Positions 438-60,186 of a stretch of DNA of 64,000 nucleotides are shown here, in pieces. Location of the stretch: sequence record PZ386970.1. One strand, given 5' to 3'. The notes beneath the pieces are model-generated. The model saw nothing but the letters and a program-made list of their open reading frames with translations, did no database searches and had not been told where the DNA came from. Source of the DNA: a phage. The position numbers and the translations under genes were made by a program. The stretch's first letter is position 1, and every line of letters starts with the position of its first letter.

Positions 438-466
438 ATAATATCATAACCTGTACCAAAGTAAAC
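438..466 (-). promoter_or_regulatory. T4 early-type promoter (GTTTAC -35, 17-nt spacer, TATTAT -10) flanked by inverted repeat GGTACAGG/CCTGTACC
   Basis: read on minus strand: GTTTAC tttggtacaggttatga TATTAT; drives ORF 31..396; coordinates approximate. Confidence 0.5.
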
Positions 467-842: not shown

Positions 843-942
843 TTTATTCTCCGGTTGTTTTATTGATTAGGTGGTACAAGACTATAGTAACACATCCTAC
901 AGGAGAGTAAACATCTTTTTTAAACTTTTTCTGCCCTAAACG

Positions 943-4412: not shown

Positions 4413-4471
4413 TTCGATTTCCTCATTGTGTTGGTAGAGTTATAGTATCACAACTCCACCATGTTGTAAAC

Positions 4472-6537: not shown

Positions 6538-6594
6538 TTAGATTTCCTCAATTATCCATAGGAGCATTATACTCTGCTCCTGAGAGTTTGTAAA

Positions 6595-7941: not shown

Positions 7942-8003
7942 AATTTTCTCCTCGTGTTATTGATAAAAGCCATAGTAACACCTTCCTTGGTGTTTGTAAA
8001 CCA

Positions 8004-9137
<1,134 letters not shown>

Positions 9138-9184
9138 TCAGTTAGTTTTTTTTAAATTGTACCACAATCCTTGTGGTATGTAAA

Positions 9185-9595: not shown

Positions 9596-9621
9596 AATAA
9601 AGTGGGACCGAAGTCCCGTCC

Positions 9622-14312: not shown

Positions 14313-14896
14313 TTATACACGCTCTCAGTAATTTCGGTGAGTTCATCGATTCTGTAGTAATGAGATTCTACCATAGAACGTTGAAGCATAATATCTTGGA
14401 CGAAATCTTTATCAAGTTGAACATCGGAATTAACCCGACATTTCTTAATGATTTTAGTCATCACGATTTCATCGGCATAAGGCAGTGCTTGTTTCAGTAA
14501 AGCAGGGCCACCGATAACAGATACATCAACATGTTCAGTAGAAAGTTTAAACGGTGCATCGGATGCAGGGCTAAACAGATTAATTTCACTACCCATTACC
14601 AAGGTAATAAATTCTGCTTGAGTGATATAGAAATGCGCAAGTTTGTTGGTTTTATTCCTAGGCAGTTTTCTGGCCATATCAGTGACAACCACATGAGTAC
14701 GATCCGGGAGTAGACGAGGTAATGATGCAAATGTCTTAGCACCCATAACCATTACGGTGTTTTTAGTACGAGCAACAAAGTTACTCATATCTTGTTTGAT
14801 ATGCTTCCATGGCAGCCCATCACCTAATCCAAAAGCATATTCCAGTTTATCATCAACGGCTTTAGACGGTGCGCATGCGAACACTAATTTAAGCAT
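14309..14896 (-). CDS. frd: dihydrofolate reductase
   Basis: 195-aa ORF directly upstream of td with 4-nt overlap; size and position as T4 Frd. Confidence 0.85.
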   Translation of the reverse strand: MLKLVFACAPSKAVDDKLEYAFGLGDGLPWKHIKQDMSNFVARTKNTVMVMGAKTFASLPRLLPDRTHVVVTDMARKLPRNKTNKLAHFYITQAEFITLVMGSEINLFSPASDAPFKLSTEHVDVSVIGGPALLKQALPYADEIVMTKIIKKCRVNSDVQLDKDFVQDIMLQRSMVESHYYRIDELTEITESVYK

Positions 14897-14898
14897 TT

Positions 14899-15147
14899 TT
14901 ATTTCCTCAGATTTTTCTTAACAACTTTCCAATCGGCTTTAAACGATTCAACATCAGAGTGGTGAATCCAGAATCCTGCGCTTTCACCATCTTCGTAGAG
15001 TGGACATCTGTCACATTCTTCGTTCCAACCCATTTCGCGTAAAGCTTCTTCAGCTTGTTCAAGGAGTTCGGCGTCTTTACCAATGATGTTGAAGTACCAT
15101 TTACCTCTAACTTCAGAATCTTTGATGCTCTGGCGTTGCAATCTCAT
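14899..15147 (-). CDS. hypothetical protein (frd.x-region)
   Basis: 82-aa ORF from track. Confidence 0.5.
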   Translation of the reverse strand: MRLQRQSIKDSEVRGKWYFNIIGKDAELLEQAEEALREMGWNEECDRCPLYEDGESAGFWIHHSDVESFKADWKVVKKNLRK

Positions 15148-15210
15148 TTTATTCTCCTCTTCACTTTTATTTGATAGGGCTATTATAACATAACCCTATC
15201 CGATTGTATA

Positions 15211-15615: not shown

Positions 15616-15696
15616 TTTGATTTCCTCATGTTGTTGATATGTCTATACTAATACATCCAGGGAAGAAGTAAACAACTTTTTCGGCAATTTACAGAT

Positions 15697-15721
15697 ACTC
15701 AAAAGGGAGACCGAAGTCTCC
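15697..15721 (-). terminator. intrinsic terminator hairpin downstream of gene 32 (GGGAGAC-UUCG-GUCUCCC + U-tract)
   Basis: same hairpin sequence as at ~950; located just after gene 32 stop. Confidence 0.6.
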
Positions 15722-15728
15722 CAATTTA

Positions 15729-16631
15729 TTATAGACCGGCTAACAGGTCATCGAGGTCACCATCATCAGAGGATGAGGTAGAGCTCATGAAGTCATCTTC
15801 AGTTTTTGCAGAACTAAAGGCTTCCATGTCTTTATCAAAATCGTCAAGGTCAGAAGCAACTTTATCTGCAACAGAAGCTGCTGCGGCTGCTGCACCACCA
15901 AGAGCGGCAGTACCAAGAACCTTAGCGAAAGATTCATTTAATTTTTCAAAAGATTTGAACTGGTCTTTAGCCGTCAAAGTAGTAAGGTCTACCATCTGGT
16001 CATATAGTTCTTTCTGGAATGCTTCGTCATTAATACGAGGAATTTCAGATTGACCCAAGAATTTAGATTCGTCATAGTTGCTAAAACCGGAAACCTGCTT
16101 AGCTTTCAGAACGAAGTTGGCACCTTCAAACGGACAAGTAACATCAACTGGAGTTTCACCCATTTCGGTATCAACTGCAATCATTGCATTGATTTTGTCC
16201 CAAATCTTTTTACCGAAACGATATTTAAATACTTTACCTTCGTTATCTGGAGCTTGAGGGTCTTTAACAACCAGAATATTAGCCCAATAAGAAGTTTTAC
16301 GTTTCAGTTGAGAATATTCAGTTTTGTTGGTATTGTACAGGTCATTTTTACTAATGTACTGACATACAGGACAAGAGTCGTAATCACCATGTGTAGAAGA
16401 GCAATTTTCAATATACCATTTACCATTTTTCTTGAAACCGTGGTTAACAAGAATTGCAAATGGTAGTGCGTCATCAGTTTTTGCTGGCAAGAAACGAATT
16501 ACCGCTTGACCATTACCTGATGCATCTAGCTTCAGCTTCCATTCGCCTTTATCTTCTGAAGAAAAACCTTTGTTACCGTTCAGTTTAGCCATTTGAGCAG
16601 CGAGGTCAGCAGTAGATTTACGTTTAAACAT
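15729..16631 (-). CDS. 32: gp32 single-stranded DNA-binding protein
   Basis: 300-aa ORF; N-terminus [35 protein letters not shown] and zinc-binding Cys/His region match T4 gp32; acidic C-terminal tail. Confidence 0.92.
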
Positions 16632-18939: not shown

Positions 18940-18970
18940 TATAGTAACATACTCATTTGAAAGCGTAAAC
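18940..18970 (-). promoter_or_regulatory. early-type promoter for rnh
   Basis: minus strand GTTTAC ~18 nt TACTAT upstream of rnh start; approximate. Confidence 0.4.
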
Positions 18971-24028: not shown

Positions 24029-24053
24029 GGGAGACTTCGGTCTCCCATTTTTG
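24029..24053 (+). terminator. intrinsic terminator hairpin after gene 35 (GGGAGAC-UUCG-GUCUCCC + U-tract)
   Basis: perfect hairpin followed by ATTTTTG; directly upstream of gene 36 late promoter. Confidence 0.6.
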
Positions 24054-24753: not shown

Positions 24754-27700
24754 ATGGCTACATTAAAACAGATACAATTTAAAAGAAGCAAAGTGGCAGG
24801 AGTTAATCCTACTGCAGCACAATTAGCCGAAGGCGAATTAGCGATAAACTTAAAAGACCGAACTCTTTTTACTAAAGATGACCTCGGTAATATTATTAGC
24901 CTAGGCTTTGCTAAGGGCGGGGATATTAACGGTAATGTAACTCAAACCGGCGATTATTTACAAAACGGCACATATAATCTTAATGGAAACCAGTTTGTTT
25001 ATGCAGGAAAGTATATTGAATTCTTGCCAAAAACTGCTGGAAACGGCGCCTGGGCTAACCAACATCTGAATAAAGCCCCTATCTTTACAGATTTGAGTTC
25101 AACTACTTCAACTTCTGAATATCATCCGCTGATTAAACAACGCTATAAAGATGGAACTTTTTCTGTCGGTACATTAGTAAATGAAGGAAGTTTTAAGATT
25201 CATTATATCAATGAATCTGGGGATTCGAAATATTGGACTTTTAATCGAAACGGTAATTTCATCGTAGATTCTGGTAGTATTGAAGTTCGTGCTGGTAATA
25301 TTTCCGCTTCTGGAAATATTAATTCAGCTACTGGTGTAATTTCTGCACCTCGTGTTATCACAAAAAATATTAATTTAAGTACAAAGACTTTTATTCCTAA
25401 TAACGACGCTGGGTATGATTTAGTTTCTTTGCCTACTTGGATTTATAATCCGCCGGCAGATGGTTCTGACCGTAATACAAATGGTCTTAACTACATCCGT
25501 AAGATGAGGGCTTCAAATACTTCTAGTATTTTCCATGAAATAGTTGATTGTCGTTCAGGAAAGCCACAAGAAATTTCTTGGTGGACAGGCGTAGGTCCAG
25601 AATCTTTCCAATGGGCGTTTGATACTTCTGGGCGTATTACCGCAGGTAAATCTATTTCAGTAGGTCTTCCTGATAACGGTTCAAATGGACGTTATCCTTT
25701 AGATTCTGCCATTTCTATTGGTATTGCAATTGGTGATAACGACACCGGTATTAAATGGGTCCGCGACGGTGTTATTGATTTCATGGCTAACGGTATTTCA
25801 TCCGCTACCATTTTGAATAACGGTATTAACAGCACCAAGAAATTGATGGTTGGTTATAGCCGAGATTCAGGTTCTACTTGGGATTTCCCAAATAACAACC
25901 AAGCAATGTTTACTGCTCGTACTGATATTGATGGCAATAATAACGGTGATGGTCAGACTCATATCGGTTATAACAGCAATTCTAAAATGTATCACTATTT
26001 CCGTGGCACGGGTCGTATGGCTGTTGGTATGGCAGAAGGTTTAATTGTTGAGCCTGGCATTTTAGATATTAAAACCGGTTCAAATTCGTTAAATTTGCGT
26101 GCTGATGGTACCATCGCTTCGGTTCAAACGTTAAAACTTAATAATGGATTATATTTTAATGGTGATGGAACTAATGCTTCTCTAGTTTTTAAAGCAGCTT
26201 CAGGTATTGATGGTACTAAGCAAATAATGTGGGAAGGTGGTACTCGTGCTGGGCAGAATAAAAGCTACGTAACTGTTAAAGCATGGGGTAATTCATTTAA
26301 CGCATCCGGCGATCGTAATCGTGAAACTGTATTTGAAGTTAGTGACGGGCAAGGATATTATTTTTATTCACAGCGTGTGGCTCCAAGTGGCTCTGAAACT
26401 ACTGGGCCTGTTGTAACCCAGTTCAATGGACAAGTTAATGCTAGAGGAAGCTTAATAACCGACGGAAGTCTTAGAGTTAACGGATTAAGCACTCTAGTTG
26501 GCAACGTTACAATGAATAATGGATTGTTTGTTCAAGGTGGTGCCTCAATTACCGGACAGGTTAAAATTGGTGGAACAGCTGATGCATTAAGAATTTGGAA
26601 TGCTGAATACGGGGCTATTTTCCGCCGCTCGGAAGCATCATTATATATTATTCCGACTCCTAAAGATGCTGGTGAAAGCGGTGGAATAAGTAATCTTAGA
26701 CCATTGATAATAGAACTGAACACTGGCACAGTTAAAATGTCGCATGATGTTCATTTAGGAGATTCTGGATCTGGTACAGGATTATTACAAGTAAGTAATA
26801 GTCTTAAAACTATTAAAATGATATGCCCAGTAACTATTAACGAACGTAATGCAGCGCTTACTCTAGATTCTCCTTCATCTTCTTCTGCTAATTATTTACA
26901 GGGTTCTAAAGCTGGAACTAGATCGTGGTATGTTGGTCTTGGTGGCTCAGGAAATGATTTATCACTTTATAGTCAATCTTATGGCCATGGTATTGTTATA
27001 AGCGATAATTTCGTGTCAATTACTAAACCATTAAAAGTTGGTAATGCTCAATTCGGTACCGATGGTAACATCACTGGCGGTACTGGTAATTTTGCTAACT
27101 TGAATACCACAATAAATAACCTTAAGACGGATATTGTGTCGAGTTACCCAATTGGTGCTCCGATTCCTTGGCCTACTGATACACCTCCTGAAGGTTATGC
27201 CATAATGGAAGGCCAGACGTTTGATGTTGGCTTGTATCCTAAGTTAGCTGCGGTGTATCCTTCTGGCGCTCTGCCTGATATGCGTGGTCAGACGATTAAA
27301 GGTAAACCATCTGGGCGTGCTGTATTGAGTACAGAAGCAGACGGTGTTAAGTCACATAGTCATAGTGCAAGTGCATCAAGCACAGATTTGGGTACTAAGA
27401 CCACTTCTAGTTTTGATTACGGTAGCAAAACGACTTCAAGCTTTGATTATGGTACTAAGACCAGTAATACCACTGGCAACCACAACCATACAGTGAGTGG
27501 TAATACTAGTTCAGCAGGAGCTCACCAACACGCTCGTTCAGGCCCTCAAATGCAAGGCGGCATACCAACTAGCATATTCTATGATGGATACAATAGCGCG
27601 GGTCCAAACGGCAACGCTAAAATCACTGGAACCGTGAGTGGTGCTACTGCATCGTCGAATATGGCCAAAACTTCTTCAGATGGTGCCCACACCCACAGTT

Positions 27701-27900
27701 GGTCAGGAACCACTAGTGCTACGGGTAACCATGCTCATACCGTGGGTATTGGTGCTCATACCCATTCGGTAGGTATTGGTGCTCATACTCATACTGTTGC
27801 AATTGGTTCCCATGGACATACAATAACTGTAAATGCCACAGGAAATACAGAAAACACAGTTAAAAACGTTGCTTTTAACTATATCGTTCGTTTAGCATAA
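24754..27900 (+). CDS. 37: gp37 long tail fibre distal subunit (receptor-binding)
   Basis: 1048-aa ORF; C-terminal His-x-His boxes ([34 protein letters not shown]) and terminal [11 protein letters not shown] as in T4 gp37. Confidence 0.9.
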
Positions 27901-29424: not shown

Positions 29425-29470
29425 AACGTTTTATTCATTCCACTTAATTGATAGGAGTATAGTACCATTA

Positions 29471-29632
29471 TCAGTGTTGATTGTAAACGACTTTTTCTAC
29501 GCTTTTAACGTAATCAATGTAGTCTTCCTGTTCGTACGAGTTTAAGGCTAAGAACGAGGCTAATAGTTCATTATAGACTAAAGCCTCACGCTCACGTTCG
29601 GCCTCTACTACGTTCTGAAGATTATGACTCAT
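29471..29632 (-). CDS. hypothetical protein
   Basis: track ORF 29471..29686 trimmed to internal ATG with AAGGAA RBS. Confidence 0.4.
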   Translation of the reverse strand: MSHNLQNVVEAEREREALVYNELLASFLALNSYEQEDYIDYVKSVEKVVYNQH

Positions 29633-31300: not shown

Positions 31301-31933
31301 TCACAGTACGTTAGTTACAAGGGTAATGATTTCTTTGGACACATTAGGGAAGTCAATGTAAGTATATTTACCACCGATTTTAATCTTAACATCATTTTCA
31401 AGAGAAGTAAACAGCTTTGATTCAGTTTCTGACATGTTGTATGCAAAGATTCTAAGAGCGCCATCTCGTCGAATTTCAATTTGGCGAATACCTAGAACTC
31501 GTTTTGCAAATCGAACTTCTAAGTTACTACGGTTTTCACCAATTTCTTTAACTTCAACTTTATCTTTAATATTTTCAAAAACAAAGTTTGCTAGTTCATG
31601 CATTTCAGGAGTAACTCCACGTGCTTTTCTAGTGTTACGTTTCTGAAGAAGTTCTGGAGCATTTTCTTGGGCAAAGAGGTCTGCAGCTTTTTGGATAATA
31701 TCCATTGCTTCGCCTGTTGCTACAAGTCCATCACCGGATTTTTCGACTAAACCTTTCTTAATCAATACACCAATGTTAGAGTTAACAACTGATGCATTGT
31801 ATTCTGCTTCCAGAGCTTCACGGACATTGGCAGCAGTGGTGAAGTTGTTCTTAATGATATAAACCATTATTGCAGCAGTTTTTTCATTCAGAGCGTTTTC
31901 AGAAGCTTTGATGATGTAAGTAACTTTAGACAT
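31301..31933 (-). CDS. motA: MotA middle-transcription activator
   Basis: 210-aa ORF (T4 MotA 211 aa), N-terminus MSKVTYIIKAS... and GVLIKKGLVEKSGDGL block as in T4. Confidence 0.85.
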   Translation of the reverse strand: MSKVTYIIKASENALNEKTAAIMVYIIKNNFTTAANVREALEAEYNASVVNSNIGVLIKKGLVEKSGDGLVATGEAMDIIQKAADLFAQENAPELLQKRNTRKARGVTPEMHELANFVFENIKDKVEVKEIGENRSNLEVRFAKRVLGIRQIEIRRDGALRIFAYNMSETESKLFTSLENDVKIKIGGKYTYIDFPNVSKEIITLVTNVL

Positions 31934-31970
31934 TTTATTTCTCCAAATTAGTATTTGTTTTGATAGGTCT

Positions 31971-31999
31971 ATAATATCATGTTTGAAGCAAAAGTAAAC
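31971..31999 (-). promoter_or_regulatory. T4 early-type promoter upstream of motA
   Basis: minus strand GTTTAC, 17-nt spacer, TATTAT; nearly identical copy at 32292-32320. Confidence 0.55.
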
Positions 32000-32036
32000 T
32001 TTATTTTGGGCTCTTTTTCAAAAGCCCTGGTAAAAT

Positions 32037-32252
32037 TTACAAACTCATTTCTTTAATAAGGCCAATAAGTTTTGCCTTTTTAGAACGAAGCTTTTCTAAA
32101 TGATATCCGTTTGAACCGCGAACAACTAAAGAATTGATTTCAACTTCTAAGAAATTTAATTCTTCAACAAGTGCTTTACGGGGAGCATTCATACCAGGTT
32201 TAGCTTTACCGAAACGAGTAGTTGTGTTTTGGGTTAATTTCATTTTAGACAT
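32037..32252 (-). CDS. hypothetical small basic protein
   Basis: 71-aa ORF from track with own duplicated promoter/5'UTR. Confidence 0.5.
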   Translation of the reverse strand: MSKMKLTQNTTTRFGKAKPGMNAPRKALVEELNFLEVEINSLVVRGSNGYHLEKLRSKKAKLIGLIKEMSL

Positions 32253-32291
32253 TTTATTTCTCCAATTTGGTTGTTTTGTTTTGATAGGTCT

Positions 32292-32320
32292 ATAATATCA
32301 TGTTTGAAGCACATGTAAAC
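32292..32320 (-). promoter_or_regulatory. T4 early-type promoter (duplicate of motA promoter cassette)
   Basis: ~70 bp of promoter and leader nearly identical to 31931-31999. Confidence 0.55.
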
Positions 32321-32336
32321 TGTTTTGTGAGAAAAA

Positions 32337-32361
32337 TGCACAAAAGGGAGCCGAAGCTCCC
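32337..32361 (-). terminator. terminator hairpin after gene 52 (GGGAGC-UUCG-GCUCCC + U-tract)
   Basis: perfect 6-bp stem, tetraloop, TTTTG on minus strand. Confidence 0.55.
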
Positions 32362-32437
32362 TAATCATGTTTGTCCAACCAATACAACCAAATCACTAGT
32401 GCAGCTATTGCACCGAGAAATCCTAAGGCTAGGGCAC

Positions 32438-33763
32438 TCAAAGTGCCTCCAAGTCTTTAGTGTACTCTGTCACAACATCAGTAGACTTCCAATACTCATT
32501 TTCTTCTTTCTTAGCTTTAGCTTCTTCTGCTAGTTTACGTGCTTCGTCAGAAGTGATATGGAAGATGTTAAGACCTACCAGCTTATCGACATGTTCTTTA
32601 TACATTTCTATTTGTGCTAGCTCTTCAGTCAAAGCTTTACGAGTCTTGCCTTGAATCACAATTTCGCCACTGATAACTTTTTTGATGAAGTGTGCCTTAG
32701 CAAAAGCCAGTTTAAATGCTTTTTCAGATTCAAGAATTTTGTTGTCGATACGTTTCTGAACGTAAGTCTTACGGACTTCAACAAAATCTTTGATTAAGTC
32801 TACTACATTATCGTAGACCGCTAATTTACCTTTTTCATTAATCACTGTGATGTTTTGTGAACGACGTTCGATGAGACTAAAATCTTTCATGATTTTTTCA
32901 TGACGTAGCTCTTCATCGTCTGGAAGCGAGTACTCTTTACGGAACTTCACCTTAAACCCAAAGCCGTGTTCACCACAATCATCTTCCCATGAGATTAGAC
33001 CTTTGTCTTCCAACGGGTCAAGAACCTTACTCACATACGTTTCACGGTCGAATTTATATGGTATTTCAGTTATCTGCATTTGAGTACGAGATGTGAACTT
33101 ATATGTTCCGTGAATCTCATAACGCCCATCAACTTCATGCACTTCACCACGGAATTCTGGGAATTCAACTTTTGGCTTAGCGACATTTTTACCTTGAAGA
33201 GCTTGTAATACAGCCTTTTTGACAGATTTAAAACTATGAGGCAGAATATTTGTTGCGTAACCGGTTGCAATACCAGAGACACCATTCAAAAGAACTGTCG
33301 GAATAATAGGAAGATAGAATTTTGGTGGAACGTGTTCTTTATCTTCATGAGCTGGAGCATATTCAGTATCTTTATAGACATTATAGAAATTTTTACTTAC
33401 ACGAGCAAAAATATAACGAGATGCTGCAGCTTTTTGGACTGTTCGAGAACCAAAGTTGCCTTGACCATCTAATAGTGGATAGTTGTTATTCCATGTGTTA
33501 GCCATCAATGCACCTGCATCTTGTGCAGAAGATTCACCATGGTGATAACCTAAATCTGCAACACCGCCTGCAATTGACGCAAGTTTATGAAATTTTTCTT
33601 TATTACCACGAGCCAAATCTAATGCACGATGAACCACAAAACGTTGAACCGGCTTAAATCCATCAATCATATTTGGGATTGCACGGTTTTCAACGGTGTA
33701 CATCGCATATGCTAAGGCTTCGTTATCAATAATACTTTTTAGATTACGAGAATTCAATTGCAT
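32438..33763 (-). CDS. 52: DNA topoisomerase II medium subunit (GyrA-like)
   Basis: 441-aa ORF (T4 gp52 442 aa); GyrA-type catalytic domain with active-site Tyr region. Confidence 0.9.
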   Translation of the reverse strand: MQLNSRNLKSIIDNEALAYAMYTVENRAIPNMIDGFKPVQRFVVHRALDLARGNKEKFHKLASIAGGVADLGYHHGESSAQDAGALMANTWNNNYPLLDGQGNFGSRTVQKAAASRYIFARVSKNFYNVYKDTEYAPAHEDKEHVPPKFYLPIIPTVLLNGVSGIATGYATNILPHSFKSVKKAVLQALQGKNVAKPKVEFPEFRGEVHEVDGRYEIHGTYKFTSRTQMQITEIPYKFDRETYVSKVLDPLEDKGLISWEDDCGEHGFGFKVKFRKEYSLPDDEELRHEKIMKDFSLIERRSQNITVINEKGKLAVYDNVVDLIKDFVEVRKTYVQKRIDNKILESEKAFKLAFAKAHFIKKVISGEIVIQGKTRKALTEELAQIEMYKEHVDKLVGLNIFHITSDEARKLAEEAKAKKEENEYWKSTDVVTEYTKDLEAL

Positions 33764-34554: not shown

Positions 34555-34630
34555 GCTAATTTCCTCAATTGATTAATGTTTTTGTAATCCATGAGAGCAT
34601 TATACTCTGCTCTCAAGAGTTTGTACAATT

Positions 34631-34831: not shown

Positions 34832-35081
34832 TTTGTATTCCTCGTGTTTTGATAGGTCTACTATACCATAATCCTACCGTGATGTAAACAATTAAATTAC
34901 ATTAAAATACGTTAAAGCCAACCATGTTCCAGTGAACGAACATGCGATGTAAAAACCCGTATCACAAATTGTTCTTAGTACAATAAGAAGTGCATTTTTC
35001 ATAAGTACCTCAATGCAATTGAAAATATTATACAAATCATAGGGATACTAAGCAACCATATTCCGATCCACATTTTAGAAC

Positions 35082-35345: not shown

Positions 35346-35413
35346 GGTGTTATCCTCTTTTAGATAGGACTACTATATCATAGACCTACTTAGGTGTAAA
35401 CACTTTTATGAAA

Positions 35414-36206: not shown

Positions 36207-36232
36207 AGAAAAAAAAGGGGACCGAAGTCCCC
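36207..36232 (-). terminator. terminator hairpin after rIIB (GGGGAC-UUCG-GUCCCC + U8)
   Basis: perfect hairpin followed by 8 T on minus strand. Confidence 0.6.
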
Positions 36233-40837: not shown

Positions 40838-40858
40838 ATGAAGCTCCCGAAGGAGCTT
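40838..40858 (-). terminator. hairpin (AAGCUCC-UUCG-GGAGCUU) downstream of HNH endonuclease gene
   Basis: perfect stem with tetraloop followed by AT-rich tract. Confidence 0.45.
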
Positions 40859-41669
40859 AGGACATCCAACACATTTTATAACCTTTGCAGGTTCTGTTAG
40901 GATTATTTAATGCTTTCAATATATTAGAAGACCCTATACCTAAATACTCCCTTAATTCATAAAGATAGTTAAAATCAATAGTTTCACCTGTTTTTACACT
41001 TGTGATTCTTATAGGCCTTCTTTCATATTTAGATTTATACAACTCTCTAGTCTTAGCTTTAGTTTCTTCTGACCTAGGAGTGTATGGTTTAAATCCTTTT
41101 GTTTTAAATGTTTCCATTCTTGATTTAGTTATTTTATCCTGGTGTTCTTTTGTTTTTACAGGTGCTTTTCGCCCATTCTCCCAAGATAACTTGTTGGCCT
41201 GTATTATTTTATCTATTGCTTCTTGCGTATGAGTTTTACCATAAAATGGATTTAATTCGCCTATACGTTGTGAAGCAATATGTGACATTAATTCTCTTGT
41301 TGCTTTAGTATGTTTTTTACCTTTAAATGGGTTGCCATTTTTAGCAATCCATTCTTTCATAAATCTAGAGTGCTCTTTAGAGAATTCTTGTTTAAGCCAA
41401 TCATAATCTCTAGAATTTCTAGCTCCCATGTAAAAAGCTCTAATAGCCATAAGCGTAGAACGGTTCTTATGAATTTTATAAAGCAATAAATGGGCGATAA
41501 AATGCTCTCTAGGGGTCATTTTAACTAGATTTGATTTAGCATTACTCCCGCCCATAGATTTAGGCAAAATATGGTGAGTTTCAGTATAATTAGGAATAGT
41601 GCTGCGGTTTTTAGCCGCAGCGATAAGTTTATCATAAATTTTACGATAATTCATTATCCTAGCATCCAA
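40857..41669 (-). CDS. HNH-family homing endonuclease with NUMOD3 repeats (MobA-like position)
   Basis: 270-aa ORF; HNH motif ETHHILPKSMGGSNAKSNLVKMTPREHFIAH; repeated NUMOD3-like units NPFKGKKHTKATRELM / NPFYGKTHTQEAIDKI; probable start at internal ATG overlapping gene 39 stop. Confidence 0.8.
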   Translation of the reverse strand: MDARIMNYRKIYDKLIAAAKNRSTIPNYTETHHILPKSMGGSNAKSNLVKMTPREHFIAHLLLYKIHKNRSTLMAIRAFYMGARNSRDYDWLKQEFSKEHSRFMKEWIAKNGNPFKGKKHTKATRELMSHIASQRIGELNPFYGKTHTQEAIDKIIQANKLSWENGRKAPVKTKEHQDKITKSRMETFKTKGFKPYTPRSEETKAKTRELYKSKYERRPIRITSVKTGETIDFNYLYELREYLGIGSSNILKALNNPNRTCKGYKMCWMS

Positions 41670-43474: not shown

Positions 43475-43521
43475 GTTGTCTCCTCGTTATGAAGGTATTC
43501 TATCATCCGAAATCTAAAGCA

Positions 43522-43537
43522 AAAAGGGCCGAAGCCC
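43522..43537 (-). terminator. hairpin GGGC-UUCG-GCCC + U-tract
   Basis: short GC stem with tetraloop followed by TTTTTGC on minus strand, between 141-aa ORF and gene 39. Confidence 0.4.
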
Positions 43538-43963
43538 TTATTTAAATTTAATTTTCTGAAGTGCATCAATTGCAGCCAAACGCCCTTGTTCACTTTTAAC
43601 TGTAATGACCACATCGCCGGATACGATCACCGAACCATCAACAAATTCTATAGAGCCTTTTTTGAAATCGACAGCTGTATCTGGTTCCGGAACTTCTTCA
43701 AAGAATTTAAATTCTGCACCATAAAGCAGAATATCACCTTGCATACTATGAATAGTTCGGCCATAATCGCCTACGGCTTCTACAGCAATAACCGAAACGC
43801 CGTAACCAATCATCTCTTCCACAATAAAATCTTTGGACAATAAAGTAGTATGCAGATTAGTATTAAGACGTTTACCAGTTGTATTAAGAATTCTCAAGAA
43901 ATTATCTTCTTGACCTTTGATAATACGATATTTCTTACCAACTTCAAAACCTTTAAAAGCCAT
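43538..43963 (-). CDS. hypothetical protein
   Basis: 141-aa ORF from track. Confidence 0.5.
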   Translation of the reverse strand: MAFKGFEVGKKYRIIKGQEDNFLRILNTTGKRLNTNLHTTLLSKDFIVEEMIGYGVSVIAVEAVGDYGRTIHSMQGDILLYGAEFKFFEEVPEPDTAVDFKKGSIEFVDGSVIVSGDVVITVKSEQGRLAAIDALQKIKFK

Positions 43964-44785: not shown

Positions 44786-44842
44786 AATATTCTCCTCTTG
44801 TTTTGATAGGTCTATAGTATCATAGACCATAGTTGTTGTACA

Positions 44843-45367: not shown

Positions 45368-45428
45368 ATTATTCTCCTCTGGTTGATATGGCTCTATAAT
45401 ATCAAATCCAGAGGAGAAGTAAACAACT

Positions 45429-45848
45429 TTATGCAAAAGATGCTGGACAATATTTTTTGATTCGGAACTCAGGAACTACCATGAACTGCCCGGCAAAAAC
45501 AATGTTGTAAAGCTTGACACCATCTTCAACCCATTGGTCGCTAATAAATCCGGCAATTTGCTTAGTTTTCCATGGTGTTCCATCAGTTGCAGCAGAAATA
45601 GTAAATTCATGGTCTTTTACAACTAAAACAGACCTGCACAGTTTCCATTTGAATGCTTTTTCTTCTGGTTCAATGAACCGGCTTTTAACGTAACCAATGT
45701 TACCATCAGCGTCACGAACTTTAACTTCGTTACGTCCAAAAACCGGATCACTTACATAAAGGACTTCAACCAACTTCCCAGCAACTTTAGAGCGAGAAGC
45801 ATCTGATACGTGTACATAATCACCAATAGAGAGATTTGCAATATTCAT
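45429..45848 (-). CDS. paralog family member A (conserved C-terminal GFISDQWVEDG...LYNIVF.G.F.VV motif)
   Basis: 139-aa ORF; shares N-terminal S.ASRSK.AG.LVEV and C-terminal motif with the next gene. Confidence 0.55.
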   Translation of the reverse strand: MNIANLSIGDYVHVSDASRSKVAGKLVEVLYVSDPVFGRNEVKVRDADGNIGYVKSRFIEPEEKAFKWKLCRSVLVVKDHEFTISAATDGTPWKTKQIAGFISDQWVEDGVKLYNIVFAGQFMVVPEFRIKKYCPASFA

Positions 45849-45857
45849 AATAATTCC

Positions 45858-46313
45858 TTAAGCTTTACGAGGAGATACATAGCGAGTGATTTCAGATTCT
45901 TTAACAACTCGGAAGTCACCTAAGAATACGATATTGTATAACTTTTCACCATCTTCAACCCATTGGTCACTAATGAAGCCACACATAGTATCAGTTTTGC
46001 TTGGATAACCGTATTCATCGATGAAGTCAAATTCTTTATCAGTCTGGAATTCAACACCTTTACACAAGACCCATTTGAACTGTACATTAGGTTCAGTAGA
46101 AGCAAAATGAGCGCTCACATGAGTTTCCAAGAATTTAGGACTTACGTAAGCGTACTGAGTTTCAGTTTTTCCAGAACTAGGAATGATTCGAACTTTAACT
46201 TCTTTAACACGACCAGTACCATTAGTACGAAGTCCTACCACTTCAACTAGACGACCTGCAGCTTTAGAACGAGATGCAGACGATACACGCTTAATTTCAC
46301 CAATAGTAATCAT
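45858..46313 (-). CDS. paralog family member B
   Basis: track ORF 45858..46376 trimmed to ATG (MITIGEIKRVSSASRSKAAGRLVEV...) downstream of its own promoter. Confidence 0.55.
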   Translation of the reverse strand: MITIGEIKRVSSASRSKAAGRLVEVVGLRTNGTGRVKEVKVRIIPSSGKTETQYAYVSPKFLETHVSAHFASTEPNVQFKWVLCKGVEFQTDKEFDFIDEYGYPSKTDTMCGFISDQWVEDGEKLYNIVFLGDFRVVKESEITRYVSPRKA

Positions 46314-46900: not shown

Positions 46901-46930
46901 ATTATACTCCAACCATCCTTGGTTGTAAAC
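46901..46930 (-). promoter_or_regulatory. early-type promoter with palindromic spacer (CCAAGGATGG) upstream of paralog C
   Basis: minus strand GTTTAC aaccaaggatggttggag TATAAT; similar promoter upstream of paralog B. Confidence 0.5.
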
Positions 46931-49993: not shown

Positions 49994-50146
49994 AATATTT
50001 TCCTCTGTCTTACGGACGTTAAGGTCATTTAGCTGATAAGTCTATAATATCATGCCCTCAGGTAGTGTACACTCTTTTTTCATAAAATGCTTTAATTTTT
50101 TATGTGTTATAATGGTTCTGAGTTCCATCCGGTTATTCCAATTCAG

Positions 50147-50755: not shown

Positions 50756-50812
50756 TTAGGTTTCTCCTGTGGTTGATAAAGGTATAGTATCATCATCGGA
50801 AGAGTTTGTAAA

Positions 50813-51394
50813 CTAAAAATTCAACATCTTTAAGTGAATGATTTTGTATACTCGAGACAAAGGGTCATACTCTAACTCTTCGATTTCCACAATCTCAAAT
50901 CTAGAGATGCCTGAGACCATGTACTCTTGTTCAGATTCAATCATATCTAGGACGTCAACACGCGTTTCTTCCATAACATGCTTAGGATTCTTTCCGGCAA
51001 GTACAATGTTAACCATGTTTTGGTAGTAATCAAAAATGAATGGAGCATTCCTGAGACTAAGAATAGTGTACGTCTGATATTCCCATCTCCCAGAGAATTG
51101 ACGAGCTGTACTGAAATCAGTTGTGAACGATGTTACTCGTCCAGGAGACCAATGGCATCCAACAGAAAGAAGGGAAAGACGTTCTACTTCTTCTGGAGTT
51201 ACACCACGGTAGAGTTCTACTGGTACTGTAGAAGTCATATGCTTACGAACAAGATGGTCTAATTCATAGTGGAAATCTGGGTCTTCCTTAGAATCAGTGC
51301 AAGCCCAGAGAATGTTTTGTTCTTGGCGGGTGAATTTACTATCAATCAGATTTGTTAGGTATTCGCGTTCTTGAAGTTCAGATTGACATGTCAT
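50813..51394 (-). CDS. modB: ADP-ribosyltransferase, ModB-like
   Basis: 193-aa ORF; paralog of the preceding gene (shared blocks ...ILWAC.D.K.D....L..LVR...TS.VP...YRG...). Confidence 0.55.
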   Translation of the reverse strand: MTCQSELQEREYLTNLIDSKFTRQEQNILWACTDSKEDPDFHYELDHLVRKHMTSTVPVELYRGVTPEEVERLSLLSVGCHWSPGRVTSFTTDFSTARQFSGRWEYQTYTILSLRNAPFIFDYYQNMVNIVLAGKNPKHVMEETRVDVLDMIESEQEYMVSGISRFEIVEIEELEYDPLSRVYKIIHLKMLNF

Positions 51395-51610
51395 GATAGA
51401 CCTCCATTTAAAGATAAGTCTATCATAACACGAGAGGAGGGAATGTAAACTACTTTTTAAGCTTTCCTACTAAAGGACCGTCAGGACCGGGTTGTTCTAA
51501 CATGAATAAAGATGCTTTAAAAAGCAATGTCAACCCTTTCACCATTCGATACCATGTCTCAAAGTCTTTTTCCTTGATTTCTAGTAAGAATTTCTCTTTA
51601 AATTTCTCTT

Positions 51611-52876: not shown

Positions 52877-52942
52877 ATTGTTCTCCTCTTGAGTAAGTAA
52901 GAATATCTTAACATAGTTTTTAGTGGTTGTAAACTCTAGAAA

Positions 52943-52968
52943 CGAAAAAAGGAATCCTTCGGGATTCC
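52943..52968 (-). terminator. terminator hairpin after soc (GGAAUCC-CGAA-GGAUUCC + U-tract)
   Basis: perfect 7-bp stem, tetraloop, TTTTTT on minus strand. Confidence 0.55.
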
Positions 52969-52977
52969 TTAAATTAT

Positions 52978-53253: not shown

Positions 53254-53259
53254 ACTTAA

Positions 53260-56758: not shown

Positions 56759-56821
56759 TTTAACTCCTTAGTTGATTTGATAGGACTACTATACTATAGT
56801 CCATCTATAATGTAAACAAAT

Positions 56822-57070: not shown

Positions 57071-57131
57071 GTTAATTTCCTCTTGATTTGTTATGTTTAT
57101 AATATCTTGTTTTAACTTTGGTGTAAACCAA

Positions 57132-57500: not shown

Positions 57501-57560
57501 TTCAATTTCCTCTGTAGTTGATAGAAAGATAGTAACACAGTACGTGGTGCTTGTAAACAG

Positions 57561-57773
57561 CTATTTTAAACTTTTGCGAAATTTGCGTTTTTCTTGACGA
57601 ATCTGTCGTTTAGTCGGACGTACAGCAAATTTAACGAAGTCCACTTTGCCGTGTGGAAACTTTTCAGATGCTTCACAGTCCATCATTAGTTCCCATCCTT
57701 CCAGAATAAGAGCTTTCCATGGAGTGGTTGACACAAATTCGTACGGGGATGGTTTAAATACTGTTGAATACAT
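57561..57773 (-). CDS. hypothetical basic protein
   Basis: track ORF 57561..57818 trimmed so as not to overlap dmd; start uncertain. Confidence 0.35.
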   Translation of the reverse strand: MYSTVFKPSPYEFVSTTPWKALILEGWELMMDCEASEKFPHGKVDFVKFAVRPTKRQIRQEKRKFRKSLK

Positions 57774-57774
57774 A

Positions 57775-57966
57775 TTAACCTCTGAAATCAGCTTCGAAAA
57801 CTTTCTCGTCATTAACAAATGCTTTAACTAATGCTTTGTTCACTTCAGCAAGTTGTACCGTAACCCACTCGATTTCTTCACGATCACCTGATAACATGAT
57901 ATCTTTAGTGAACATCTCACCGCTTTTAAACCAGCCAATAAAAGTAACTTTAGTTAATTTGCTCAT
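57775..57966 (-). CDS. dmd: Dmd antitoxin (discriminator of mRNA degradation)
   Basis: track ORF trimmed to internal ATG; ~63 aa; blocks F.GWFK...MFTK.I and AEVNKALVKAF..D.KV.E.D.RG match T4 Dmd as recalled. Confidence 0.7.
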   Translation of the reverse strand: MSKLTKVTFIGWFKSGEMFTKDIMLSGDREEIEWVTVQLAEVNKALVKAFVNDEKVFEADFRG

Positions 57967-58306: not shown

Positions 58307-58336
58307 ATAGTAACATGATTTAGGAGTGTTGTAAAC
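58307..58336 (-). promoter_or_regulatory. early-type promoter adjacent to gene 41 terminator hairpin
   Basis: minus strand GTTTAC ~18 nt TACTAT; hairpin AGGAGAC-UUCG-GUCUCCU immediately upstream at ~58343-58360. Confidence 0.5.
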
Positions 58337-58365
58337 CCCGAAAGGAGACCGAAGTCTCCTTTCTA

Positions 58366-59817: not shown

Positions 59818-60186
59818 TTAAAAGAATTTAAATTTTTTCTTGGTCCGTTCATTAAAAGCTTGTTGTACTTGCATTGTAACACATTTTTCAACATGTGGTG
59901 CAAGTTCTGCTTTTCTGTCTTGGTCAAGAACTGCAAAGTCCATTACGATTTTACCATCAACCCAGTCTAGTTTTGTAATATAGACTATATGATGAGAACC
60001 ATCTTCAAGTGTAATCAGAATCTCTTGAATGACATTTTCCATTGCTGAACGGATAATTTTAAGAGATTCATTAAACACTCGTTCTTTGCGAATGTCTTCC
60101 CCTTCCGAAGAAGGGGATTCATCAACGATTTCTAGATTTAAATCATCAAGATTATTCATCGAAATCTTCCATTTCGTCAAGGTCAT
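59818..60186 (-). CDS. 40: gp40-position protein (head vertex assembly chaperone in T4)
   Basis: 122-aa ORF between uvsX and 41 as in T4 (uvsX-40-41 operon); assignment by synteny and size. Confidence 0.5.
   Translation of the reverse strand: MTLTKWKISMNNLDDLNLEIVDESPSSEGEDIRKERVFNESLKIIRSAMENVIQEILITLEDGSHHIVYITKLDWVDGKIVMDFAVLDQDRKAELAPHVEKCVTMQVQQAFNERTKKKFKFF

Follow-up and report, generated by a model that had tools for sequence, protein, structure and literature searches.

Repeated early promoter cassettes and the gain and loss of small genes in an RB69-like T4-type phage

The window analyzed here, the whole 64,000-nucleotide stretch of phage DNA in record PZ386970.1, comes from an RB69-like (Mosigvirus) T4-type coliphage with its early genes on the minus strand. 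Sequence identity of the region with the Mosigvirus JS09, APCEc01, a20 and p000v is 96-98%. Relatives were drawn from GenBank phage records, and a scan of IMG/VR with MotA gave only two loci. The gene starting at 31933 is motA, as it is also annotated in the relatives, and a 71-aa ORFan (ORF71) lies between it and gene 52, the upstream neighbour. The motA locus contains the following features.

31301..31933, minus strand: motA, 210 aa, middle transcription activator (Pfam MotA_activ, 2.4e-39, and MotCF, 2.2e-08; phrog_1345)
31925..32008, minus strand: copy B of the cassette, before motA; -35 TTTACT 31993-31998, TG 31978-31979, -10 TATTAT 31971-31976, then leader, GGAG Shine-Dalgarno sequence 31941-31944, and ATG 31931-31933 with two more codons
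32008..32027, minus strand: hairpin (8-bp stem, GAAA loop) in the gap from the ORF71 stop to the motA promoter -35 (-12.3 kcal/mol, z -3.3)
32037..32252, minus strand: ORF71, cargo of a 319-bp repeat unit (phrog_6200)
32244..32329, minus strand: copy A of the cassette, before ORF71; -35 TTTACA 32314-32319, -10 TATTAT 32292-32297, then leader, GGAG Shine-Dalgarno sequence and ATG 32250-32252
32345..32362, minus strand: terminator-like C(UUCG)G hairpin that follows gene 52 and precedes the copy A -35 by 25 nt (-15.5 kcal/mol, z -4.4)
32438..33763, minus strand: gene 52, topoisomerase II medium subunit (from comparison with relatives)

The two copies, 31925-32008 and 32244-32329, are direct repeats with 76 of 86 alignment columns identical and one 2-nt gap, and their longest exact run is 37 nt (31954-31990 = 32275-32311). 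On the minus strand each consists of a T4-type early promoter, a leader, a GGAG Shine-Dalgarno sequence and three codons, and the promoter motif GTTTAC(T/A)-N16-TGATATTAT is present in both. A preliminary description of this DNA had reported a nearly identical cassette of about 70 bp before motA and before the next small gene. The alignment confirmed this and made the repeat slightly longer, with 86 columns that take in codons 1-3 (ATGTCTAAA) of both genes. Both copies also contain TTGGAGAAATAAAATG, and GGAG occurs in 13 of the 26 early promoter cassettes of the window, which by sequence makes these leaders candidate targets of RegB. Cleavage of the T4 motA Shine-Dalgarno sequence by RegB has been reported (PMC2988021).

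A two-block position matrix found 26 sites, all of them on the minus strand; at an equal threshold, shuffled sequences gave 0.1 sites each. Because the matrix was trained on these very sites, the true controls are the shuffles and the asymmetry between strands. Besides the two at the motA locus, the sites are as follows.

438..465, minus strand: early promoter, 11-bp inverted repeat (TTGGTACAGGT/ACCTGTACCAA) enclosing the -10 (matrix; fold -17.4 kcal/mol, z -5.7)
884..911, minus strand: early promoter, UUCG hairpin 949-968 at 37 nt upstream (matrix, fold)
4442..4470, minus strand: early promoter (matrix)
6566..6594, minus strand: early promoter, 7-bp inverted repeat around the -10 (matrix, fold)
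7972..8000, minus strand: early promoter (matrix)
9156..9184, minus strand: early promoter (matrix)
15182..15210, minus strand: early promoter, 7-bp inverted repeat (GATAGGG/CCCTATC) around the -10 (matrix, fold)
15645..15672, minus strand: early promoter, UUCG hairpin 15705-15722 upstream (matrix)
18941..18969, minus strand: early promoter (matrix)
29459..29487, minus strand: early promoter before the asiA homologue (matrix)
34599..34627, minus strand: early promoter before ndd, 8-bp inverted repeat around the -10 (matrix, fold)
34860..34888, minus strand: early promoter (matrix)
35372..35400, minus strand: early promoter (matrix)
44814..44842, minus strand: early promoter, inverted repeat GGTCTAT/ATAGACC around the -10 (matrix, fold)
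45396..45423, minus strand: early promoter (matrix)
46901..46929, minus strand: early promoter (matrix)
50044..50071, minus strand: early promoter (matrix)
50784..50812, minus strand: early promoter (matrix)
51422..51449, minus strand: early promoter (matrix)
52905..52933, minus strand: early promoter, hairpin 52949-52970 at 15 nt upstream (matrix, fold)
56788..56816, minus strand: early promoter, 6-bp inverted repeat around the -10 (matrix)
57099..57127, minus strand: early promoter (matrix)
57529..57557, minus strand: early promoter near a 205-bp indel of the relatives (matrix)
58307..58335, minus strand: hybrid early promoter, UUCG hairpin 58340-58363 abutting the -35 (matrix, comparison with relatives)

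The family consensus is aaAaA.taGTTTACA ... taTG.TAttATAgaccTATcaaa. From its upstream end a cassette consists of an A-rich UP-like element (aaAaA before GTTTAC; on average, 4.4 of 8 positions are A), G-TTTAC(A/T), a spacer of 17 nt (18 sites) or 16 nt (8 sites), TGnTA(T/C)TAT and a AGACCTATCAA start region, and it continues through a short leader to a Shine-Dalgarno sequence and the ATG. The TG extension is present in 20 of 26 promoters. In 25 of 26 the -10 lies 32-56 nt from an ATG that is preceded by a Shine-Dalgarno sequence, and the remaining one lies about 35 nt before the asiA start. The orientation is that of the coding strand in every case. Two of the cassettes are paralogues of others: that at 884..911 of the 465 cassette (104 nt, 72% identical) and that at 6566..6594 of the 34627 cassette, where the stem shows compensatory changes.

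This layout agrees with the early promoter consensus of T4 and RB69, which has GTTTAC at -36 to -31, an A-rich segment at -40 to -44, a TG-extended -10 and C-rich positions -3 to -1 (Nolan 2006, PMC1524935; Hinton 2010, PMC2988021). In RB69 itself, 57 early promoters have been predicted 5′ of early genes and novel ORFs (PMC1524935). The cassettes of the window, which belongs to a different Mosigvirus isolate about 96-97% identical to those already sequenced, are the same in all essentials, and the consensus supports the assignment of the 26 sites as putative T4/RB69-type early (sigma-70) promoters. Start sites, termination and RegB cleavage are predicted from T4 and from matches to the consensus. 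The regulatory role proposed for the repeats in the preliminary description was upheld by this match, by the 26 sense-oriented sites before start codons with Shine-Dalgarno sequences, and by the identity of the 31933 gene as motA. The promoter core had been placed on the plus strand, which is incorrect; what was taken for the core corresponds, in reverse complement, to the extended -10 and start region (ATGATATTATAGACCTATCAA) and does not include the -35; on the minus strand, GTTTAC sits another 16-17 nt upstream. A recurrence of more than ten times had been stated; it holds for the matrix sites but not for the literal 21-mer TTGATAGGTCTATAATATCAT, which occurs seven times at up to three mismatches.

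It is extremely improbable that the repeats resemble one another by chance in AT-rich intergenic DNA. Scanning 29-36.5 kb with a generic sigma-70 consensus gave no enrichment over shuffles (26 found, 25.6 expected), as chance would predict; such a scan therefore cannot support a promoter family, and a T4-specific matrix is needed. Chance is refuted by the 21-mer, whose seven occurrences compare with none in 100 shuffles, by the 37-nt exact run at the motA locus and by the 26:0 strand asymmetry.

The repeats had also been described as frequently abutting GC-rich tetraloop hairpins. The hairpins are real and stable, but "frequently" was an overstatement, since only 5-6 of 26 promoters have a GC-rich hairpin within 40 nt upstream. 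Folds of the tetraloop or upstream hairpins range from -12 to -16 kcal/mol (z -2.4 to -4.4), and those of the folded C(UUCG)G hairpins from -13 to -16 kcal/mol (z -3.4 to -4.4). The loop given as CGAA is that of the complementary strand; in the mRNA sense it reads UUCG, the classic T4 hairpin, and UUCG with a C-G closing pair was found in 9 of 12 minus-strand tetraloop hairpins. Hairpins of the C(UUCG)G type were first found in T4 mRNA (PMC4371310). Those of the window share with them the UUCG loop, the C-G closing pair, the intercistronic position and a loop sense that follows transcription, but differ in that only some are followed by a U-tract. The 36217-36232 hairpin satisfies the intrinsic-terminator rule on the minus strand, and the 52949-52970 hairpin, which has a CGAA loop on the minus strand, is followed by a U6 tract (six T in eight bases after the stem). 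At 32345-32362 the minus strand has only UUUUGUG after the stem and the terminator rule is passed only on the plus strand, while no U-tract follows the stem of 32008-32027. A search of the whole window gave no match to an Rfam family at or above the gathering threshold. The tetraloop scan also found C(UUCG)G hairpins away from early promoters.

60098..60117, minus strand: C(UUCG)G hairpin
43524-43539, 40841-40858, 36217-36232 and 9604-9617: further C(UUCG)G hairpins

An inverted repeat around the -10 with a stem of at least 7 bp was present in 5 of 26 promoters, compared with 0.8 expected when spacers were paired with the downstream regions of other promoters (P~2e-4). Stems spanning the -10 were seen in 5-6 promoters, with folds of -9.5 to -17.4 kcal/mol. 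The inverted repeat noted earlier is thus promoter-specific in a subset, but the exact CATAGACC was seen after the core at just two places (35379, 44821). About 14 of 26 promoters have no obvious stem-loop. The motA promoter core was considered as a hairpin and rejected (-1.1 kcal/mol, z -0.1).

Comparison with relatives showed that what a20, p000v and mobillu are missing is precisely the 319-bp unit, ORF71 with one cassette. Among about 158 close Mosigvirus records, about 76 have the long form and about an equal number the short form; ORF71 was found in 77 Mosigvirus-level and 17 Dhakavirus records. The single cassette of the short forms aligns to both window copies over 86-91 nt. In these genomes the copy A promoter and leader are fused to motA, which indicates a crossover within the shared TTGGAGAAATAAAATGTCTAAA. 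Flanking SNP haplotypes of the deletion are mosaic and fit either one deletion spread by recombination or recurrent deletion.

The two copies also evolve in concert. Both have GCTTC/TATTAT in Mosigvirus and GCTTT/TACTAT in Dhakavirus. VR5 has TTATGC in both copies, whereas TTCTGC is found in both copies of JS98 and C6 and in the motA copy of Bp7. In Mosigvirus the motA leader and first codons have been copied onto ORF71 (MNKM becomes MSKM).

Three further events have junctions inside cassettes. At 58307-58335 the window has a hybrid promoter whose -35 side is orthologous to one cassette of the relatives and whose -10 side is orthologous to another; in about 150 relatives a 124-aa gene lies between these two cassettes, and it is missing here. 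The 14-nt spacer of the hybrid (58315-58330) is unlike either a20 cassette, indicating that the exact parents were not sampled. In LF82-33 the 15210 cassette is duplicated around an extra 352-bp gene (74-nt overlap), and in S143_2 an extra 233-bp gene at the 15672 cassette is bounded by a 30-nt repeat of leader, Shine-Dalgarno sequence and ATG. The comparison of variable-block junctions with cassette positions that had been proposed as a check thus yielded four events, including that at the motA locus. The proposal that the cassettes act as recombination substrates is borne out by the absence of the 319-bp unit in about half of the relatives, by the three other cassette junctions and by the lineage-specific substitutions shared between copies.

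We consider it quite unlikely that the cassettes are purely regulatory, with their likeness due to shared selection or descent, the adjoining indels merely intergenic and no meaningful recombination between them. All 26 sites do look like functional promoters before genes, and many indels have nothing to do with cassettes: among the 16 distinct ones of at least 50 bp, only four are clean cassette-cassette events, 4-5 are homing-endonuclease insertions and the rest are unrelated. Three candidates were rejected as cassette-mediated, namely 57570-57785 (microhomology at gene 3′ ends), 50847-51351 (an internal deletion inside modB) and 53254-53259 (adjoining a late promoter). One end of the 205-bp indel of the relatives lies 13-24 nt upstream from the -35 in the 57529..57557 promoter, and the junction of this indel is a microhomology rather than a cassette repeat. 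Breakpoint position alone is weak evidence for recombination, because viable indels must be intergenic and cassettes probably make up a sizeable part of the intergenic sequence; the enrichment of breakpoints in cassettes seems significant against the whole sequence but is not expected to be so against an intergenic-only null. Our case rests instead on junction homology. In pure insertion/deletion junctions all homologies of at least 30 nt lie in cassettes, and those outside cassettes are at most 13 nt. A purely regulatory origin also gives no reason for the leader, from start site to Shine-Dalgarno sequence, and the first three codons to converge. What the deletion removes is precisely one unit of the repeat, and the single cassette left behind can be aligned to both copies. 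Substitutions specific to VR5 and to each of the two genera are common to both copies, and the hybrid promoter lies where the relatives have two cassettes.

It is very unlikely that the cassettes form the termini of an active mobile element (MITE-like or integron-like) whose dedicated site-specific recombinase recognizes the hairpin or promoter core. The cargo is a single small gene between conserved repeats of about 90 nt, some of which have hairpins, and a possible helper protein was raised by Arbiol et al. (PMC2839356). However, the crossover points vary (Shine-Dalgarno to ATG, spacer, start region to Shine-Dalgarno), whereas a site-specific enzyme would use one fixed site; the cassette cores at the motA locus do not form a hairpin; no linked recombinase gene is present; and junction homologies of 30-90 nt fit homologous recombination.

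In all likelihood, the repeats are T4-type early promoter cassettes that also serve as homology patches for the gain and loss of small genes, the mechanism described for promoter-early stem-loop (PeSL) cassettes. By analogy with T4, host sigma-70 RNA polymerase would fire the cassette promoters right after infection. The upstream C(UUCG)G hairpins and the stem-loops enclosing the -10 would form in read-through mRNA of the preceding gene and may terminate, attenuate or stabilize this transcript, which would insulate the units from each other. As the GGAG Shine-Dalgarno sequence of motA is a site of the RegB endonuclease in T4, the duplicated leader may give ORF71 the same burst-then-shut-off expression. 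The recombination role is shown by the comparison with relatives. Cassettes are nearly identical over 30-90 nt and lie in direct orientation, which allows the homologous recombination machinery of the phage to cross over between them. A crossover between the motA-locus copies removes the 319-bp unit that the short-form relatives lack, gene conversion maintains the likeness of the two copies, and like exchanges at other cassettes add or remove single small genes.

PeSL cassettes and their role in modular shuffling have been described in T4-type phages (Arbiol 2010, PMC2839356; Comeau 2014, PMC4122927), specifically for RB49/phi1, T4/PST and KVP40/nt-1; no mention of PeSLs together with RB69 was found in the literature searched. 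As in PeSLs, the window cassettes combine a sigma-70-like early promoter with an AT-rich region, a stem-loop that lies ahead of the promoter or overlaps the -10, and a 3′ Shine-Dalgarno sequence with ATG, and they match the T4/PST consensus TTTACW-N17-TAYWAT. In PeSLs the stem-loop may also sit between the two boxes. Each motA-locus copy has an upstream hairpin (32008-32027 and 32345-32362). Single small ORFans lie between two cassettes, and indel junctions fall between the -10 and ATG or inside the promoter, also as published. Two differences are that only about half of the promoters here have a recognizable stem-loop and that the motA-locus pair adds gene conversion into coding sequence and a polymorphism of about 50:50 across about 158 genomes. 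The published description of PeSLs also includes mini-circles formed by recombination between neighbouring cassettes. Lambdoid "morons" are similar in that one accessory gene moves together with a promoter and terminator of its own, but here the substrate of recombination is the repeated regulatory cassette itself.

RB69 early promoters, UUCG hairpins and PeSL shuffling are already published, and the window is a clean Mosigvirus example that opens no new question. It illustrates how repeated promoter cassettes let T4-type phages gain and lose single accessory genes with regulation unbroken. A deletion polymorphism seen across the population and clear concerted evolution are part of this example, which backs the published PeSL model. 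The cassettes, as natural insertion and deletion points, are useful for annotating and engineering RB69-like phages.

Both motA-locus spacers contain TGCTTCA, only 7 nt from the -10. The cassettes were rejected as MotA-dependent middle promoters, defined by a MotA box, (a/t)3TGCTT(t/c)A, located 11-13 nt upstream of the -10. We also considered a more speculative reading, which we regard as unlikely, in which ongoing gene conversion gave the ORFan the promoter, RegB-sensitive GGAG leader and first codons of motA and thereby brought the two genes under co-regulation. The MotA-box-like TGCTT(C/T)A conserved in both spacers, too near the -10 to activate, would let MotA repress early transcription of motA and ORF71, and the approximately 50:50 occurrence of ORF71 would be a maintained polymorphism recurrently generated by the repeats. 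Elsewhere on the minus strand, six MotA-box candidates with proper spacing were observed.

The 4 kb around the motA locus were 96-98% identical to the Mosigvirus RB69-like coliphages JS09, NBG1, APCEc01, a20 and p000v, and no identical database record was found for this segment. Genes lie on the minus strand throughout the window except in the tail-fibre block (about 19-29 kb). The locus comprises:

ORF ending at 31933, minus strand: motA (Pfam MotA_activ 2.4e-39, MotCF 2.2e-08)
31925-32008, minus strand: copy B of the cassette, before motA
32037-32252: 71-aa ORFan (ORF71; phrog_6200, function unknown), next upstream of motA
32244-32329, minus strand: copy A of the cassette, before ORF71
32438-33763: gene 52, beyond ORF71

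The duplication of a promoter-leader cassette before motA and its neighbour, reported in the preliminary description, is real: copies A and B were identical at 76 of 86 alignment columns with a single 2-nt gap, and their longest exact common core was 37 nt. On the minus strand both read G-TTTAC(T/A), 16 nt, TGA-TATTAT and AGACCTATCAAAAC, then a short leader, TTGGAGAAATAAA and ATG TCT AAA, so that each copy consists of a -35, an extended -10, a start region, a leader, a GGAG Shine-Dalgarno (SD) and the first three codons. The plus-strand "core" described previously corresponds to the -10 and start region in reverse complement, and lacks the -35.

The spacers of both motA-locus promoters contain a MotA-box-like heptamer, TGCTTCA (31984-31990 and 32305-32311, minus strand), whose counterpart in JS98, C6, Bp7 and VR5, the Dhakavirus phages examined, is TGCTTTA, again in both copies. 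Because it lies only 7 nt from the -10 in both copies, too near for middle-promoter activation, we rejected the cassettes as MotA-dependent middle promoters. The heptamer was absent from the remaining 24 early promoters of the window, and the background rate of such motifs is about 1 per 2 kb on each strand; it may serve in autorepression or have arisen by chance.

The promoter core does recur across the window, as a degenerate family more than as the literal 21-mer, which gave only 7 matches at up to 3 mismatches (0 in 100 shuffles). A two-block matrix built iteratively from the early-promoter sites found 26 strong sites on the minus strand versus 0 on the plus strand and 0.1 in Markov shuffles at equal threshold; because the matrix was trained on its own sites, its meaningful controls are the asymmetry between strands and the shuffles. 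No enrichment was seen in a generic TTGACA/TATAAT scan, and the cassettes matched no Rfam family. The consensus was aaAaA.taGTTTACA ... taTG.TAttATAgaccTATcaaa, with TG in 20/26 promoters and a spacer of 17 nt at 18 sites and 16 nt at 8. At 25 of the 26 sites the promoter lay 32-56 nt 5′ of an SD plus ATG coinciding with an ORF start; the other is the asiA promoter. The family fits the T4/RB69 early promoters of Nolan et al. 2006 (PMC1524935), who described GTTTAC at -36 to -31, an A-rich -40 to -44 and a C-rich -3 to -1, and predicted 57 early promoters in RB69.

GC-rich tetraloop hairpins on the minus strand had a UUCG loop with a C-G closing pair in 9/12 cases and a CGAA loop in 3/12. One CGAA hairpin (24029-24046) lies within the plus-strand late genes and is UUCG in the mRNA sense. 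The previously noted GGGAGAC-CGAA-GTCTCCC thus represents the complementary strand of the C(UUCG)G hairpin, a classic structure originally discovered in T4 mRNA (PMC4371310). Predicted energies were -12 to -16 kcal/mol (z-scores -2.4 to -4.4). That such hairpins frequently abut promoters was overstated, since only 5-6 of the 26 promoters have one within 40 nt upstream of the -35:

949-968, 15705-15722, 32345-32362 and 58340-58363: UUCG hairpins
52949-52970: CGAA hairpin
32008-32027: GAAA hairpin, before the motA promoter

The proposed inverted repeat around the -10 held in a different form. Literal CATAGACC followed the core only twice, and in 5/26 promoters the spacer formed a perfect stem of at least 7 bp with its own start region, compared with 0.8 expected from pairing spacers with the start regions of other promoters (P~2e-4). 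The stem sequence varied from promoter to promoter:

438-465: TTGGTACAGGT/ACCTGTACCAA
15182-15210: GATAGGG/CCCTATC
34599-34627: TGAGAGCA/TGCTCTCA
6566-6594: AGGAGCA/TGCTCCT, in a paralogue of the 34599-34627 cassette

These stems had predicted folds of -9.5 to -17.4 kcal/mol (z-scores to -5.7), and no promoter had both an upstream hairpin and a -10-spanning stem. In the relative LF82-33 (L009, about 16380-16420), the -10 of an extra cassette is enclosed by a perfect inverted repeat of 10 bp, ACAGGGTAAT/ATTACCCTGT; this repeat is unrelated to GATAGGG/CCCTATC at the orthologous site of the window, indicating conservation of the structure but not of the sequence.

In a20 the motA-52 gap measures 187 bp, versus 504 bp in the window. 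This phage lacks exactly one repeat unit of 319 bp, that is, ORF71 plus one cassette, and its sole cassette can be aligned with either window copy over 86-91 nt, in agreement with the suggestion that cassettes act as recombination substrates. The same short arrangement occurs in p000v and mobillu. Of about 158 records sharing at least 90% identity, 76 covered the whole interval and a similar number had a 532-535-bp short form. The short forms examined were a20 and two IMG/VR contigs; in these, the promoter and leader of copy A are fused to the motA coding sequence, placing the crossover in the shared TTGGAGAAATAAAATGTCTAAA. A tblastn search detected ORF71 in 77 records at the Mosigvirus level and 17 from Dhakavirus, and nowhere beyond these. 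Because Dhakavirus ORF71 occupies the same position with divergence resembling that of its flanks, the short form probably arose by deletion from an ancestral long form. T4 differs: its motA.1, of 49 aa, is unrelated and has no promoter of its own, and its motA is preceded by a hairpin and an early promoter.

Both copies read ...TGCTTCAAACATGATATTAT in Mosigvirus and ...TGCTTTAAACATGATACTAT in Dhakavirus (JS98, Bp7 and VR5). TTATGC is present in both VR5 copies, and TTCTGC in both copies of JS98, both copies of C6 and the Bp7 motA copy, whose SD-ATG spacer equals that of the Bp7 ORF71 copy. The two leaders are unlike in Dhakavirus, where ORF71 begins MNKM; Mosigvirus ORF71 shares the leader, SD and ATG-TCT-AAA of motA and now begins MSKM. 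Because paralogous copies group by genome and not by position, these comparisons indicate gene conversion between copies A and B.

We surveyed indels of 50 bp or more by chained BLAST against eight relatives. When variable-block junctions were compared with cassette positions, as had been proposed, those at the motA locus, 58307-58335, 15210 and 15672 fell in cassettes. At 58307-58335 the window lacks a 124-aa gene, which in about 150 Mosigvirus records separates the gene 41 helicase from the following ORF and is flanked by two cassettes; this short form is common only to the window and LF82-1-type records. The window's promoter here is a hybrid whose hairpin and -35 match the upstream one of these cassettes, and whose -10, leader and ATG match the downstream one. 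Its 14-nt spacer occurs in neither cassette of a20, which leaves the exact parents of the hybrid unsampled. At 15210, two cassettes of LF82-33 enclose an additional gene of 352 bp (74-nt overlap), and at the 15672 leader, SD and ATG, S143_2 has an additional gene of 233 bp with a 30-nt repeat at its boundaries. The other indels, including a few beyond those listed here, were not cassette-mediated:

10124, 10798, 17398, 40868-41663 and probably 4410: homing-endonuclease genes
50847-51351: 503-bp deletion in the p000v modB ADP-ribosyltransferase gene, 5-bp microhomology at the junction
adjoining the 57557 promoter: 205-bp loss by microhomology
adjoining a late promoter: soc.1/soc.2 indel

Where an indel lies is not decisive by itself: viable indels have to fall between genes, and cassettes appear to make up a sizeable share of the intergenic DNA. 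At pure insertion/deletion junctions, homologies of at least 30 nt were all within cassettes, and the remainder were 13 nt or less.

The 794-bp homing-endonuclease gene at 40868-41663, beside gene 39, is present in the window, a20 and p000v and absent from APCEc01, ST0 and mobillu; its left edge abuts a UUCG hairpin (40841-40858). A 105-bp segment at 1313-1421 is missing from LF82-33 and S143_2, and three relatives have a 232-419-bp insertion at the frd gene boundary (14889-14907; overlaps of 9-13 nt), neither at a cassette. The segment most divergent from all relatives, with replaced blocks, is the distal tail-fibre gene (gp37, 24900-27700). Other repeats are three tandem His-rich repeats of 27 nt (27730-27810), families of 28-48 nt in the proximal fibre gene (20.3-21.4 kb), and an 80-nt direct repeat, 74% identical (45496-45575 and 45925-46004), in two adjacent MotB-like genes; these are tandem paralogues with small ST0 and a20 insertions nearby (46096-46101).

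The analysis establishes the anatomy, strand, recurrence, stem stability, junctions and concerted evolution of the cassettes, confirming with corrections the observation of repeated promoter cassettes, and supports their reading as both regulatory elements and recombination substrates. By analogy with T4, host sigma-70 polymerase would fire their promoters at once after infection, and in read-through RNA the stems may bring about termination, attenuation or stabilisation. RegB cleaves T4 mRNA at the GGAG of the motA SD (PMC2988021); if the window's GGAG is likewise cleaved, the duplication of the leader would put ORF71 under the burst-and-shut-off expression of motA. Repeats of 30-90 nt would presumably be used by the phage's homologous recombination system.

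In architecture, stem-loop positions and proposed role, the cassettes match promoter-early stem-loops (PeSLs; Arbiol 2010 PMC2839356, Comeau 2014 PMC4122927), and they match the T4/PST PeSL consensus TTTACW-N17-TAYWAT. Arbiol et al. (PMC2839356) defined five subclasses by stem-loop position, one "overlapping the -10 box". The window cassettes are therefore a further example of PeSLs and not a new kind; the example is new in that a link between PeSLs and RB69-like phages was absent from the literature searched. Upstream of gene 39, a UUCG hairpin (43524-43539, minus strand) is directly followed by TTTTGCTTTA-N12-TAGAAT, and this hairpin plus middle-promoter composite (43490-43539) resembles the "PmSL" described for phage nt-1.
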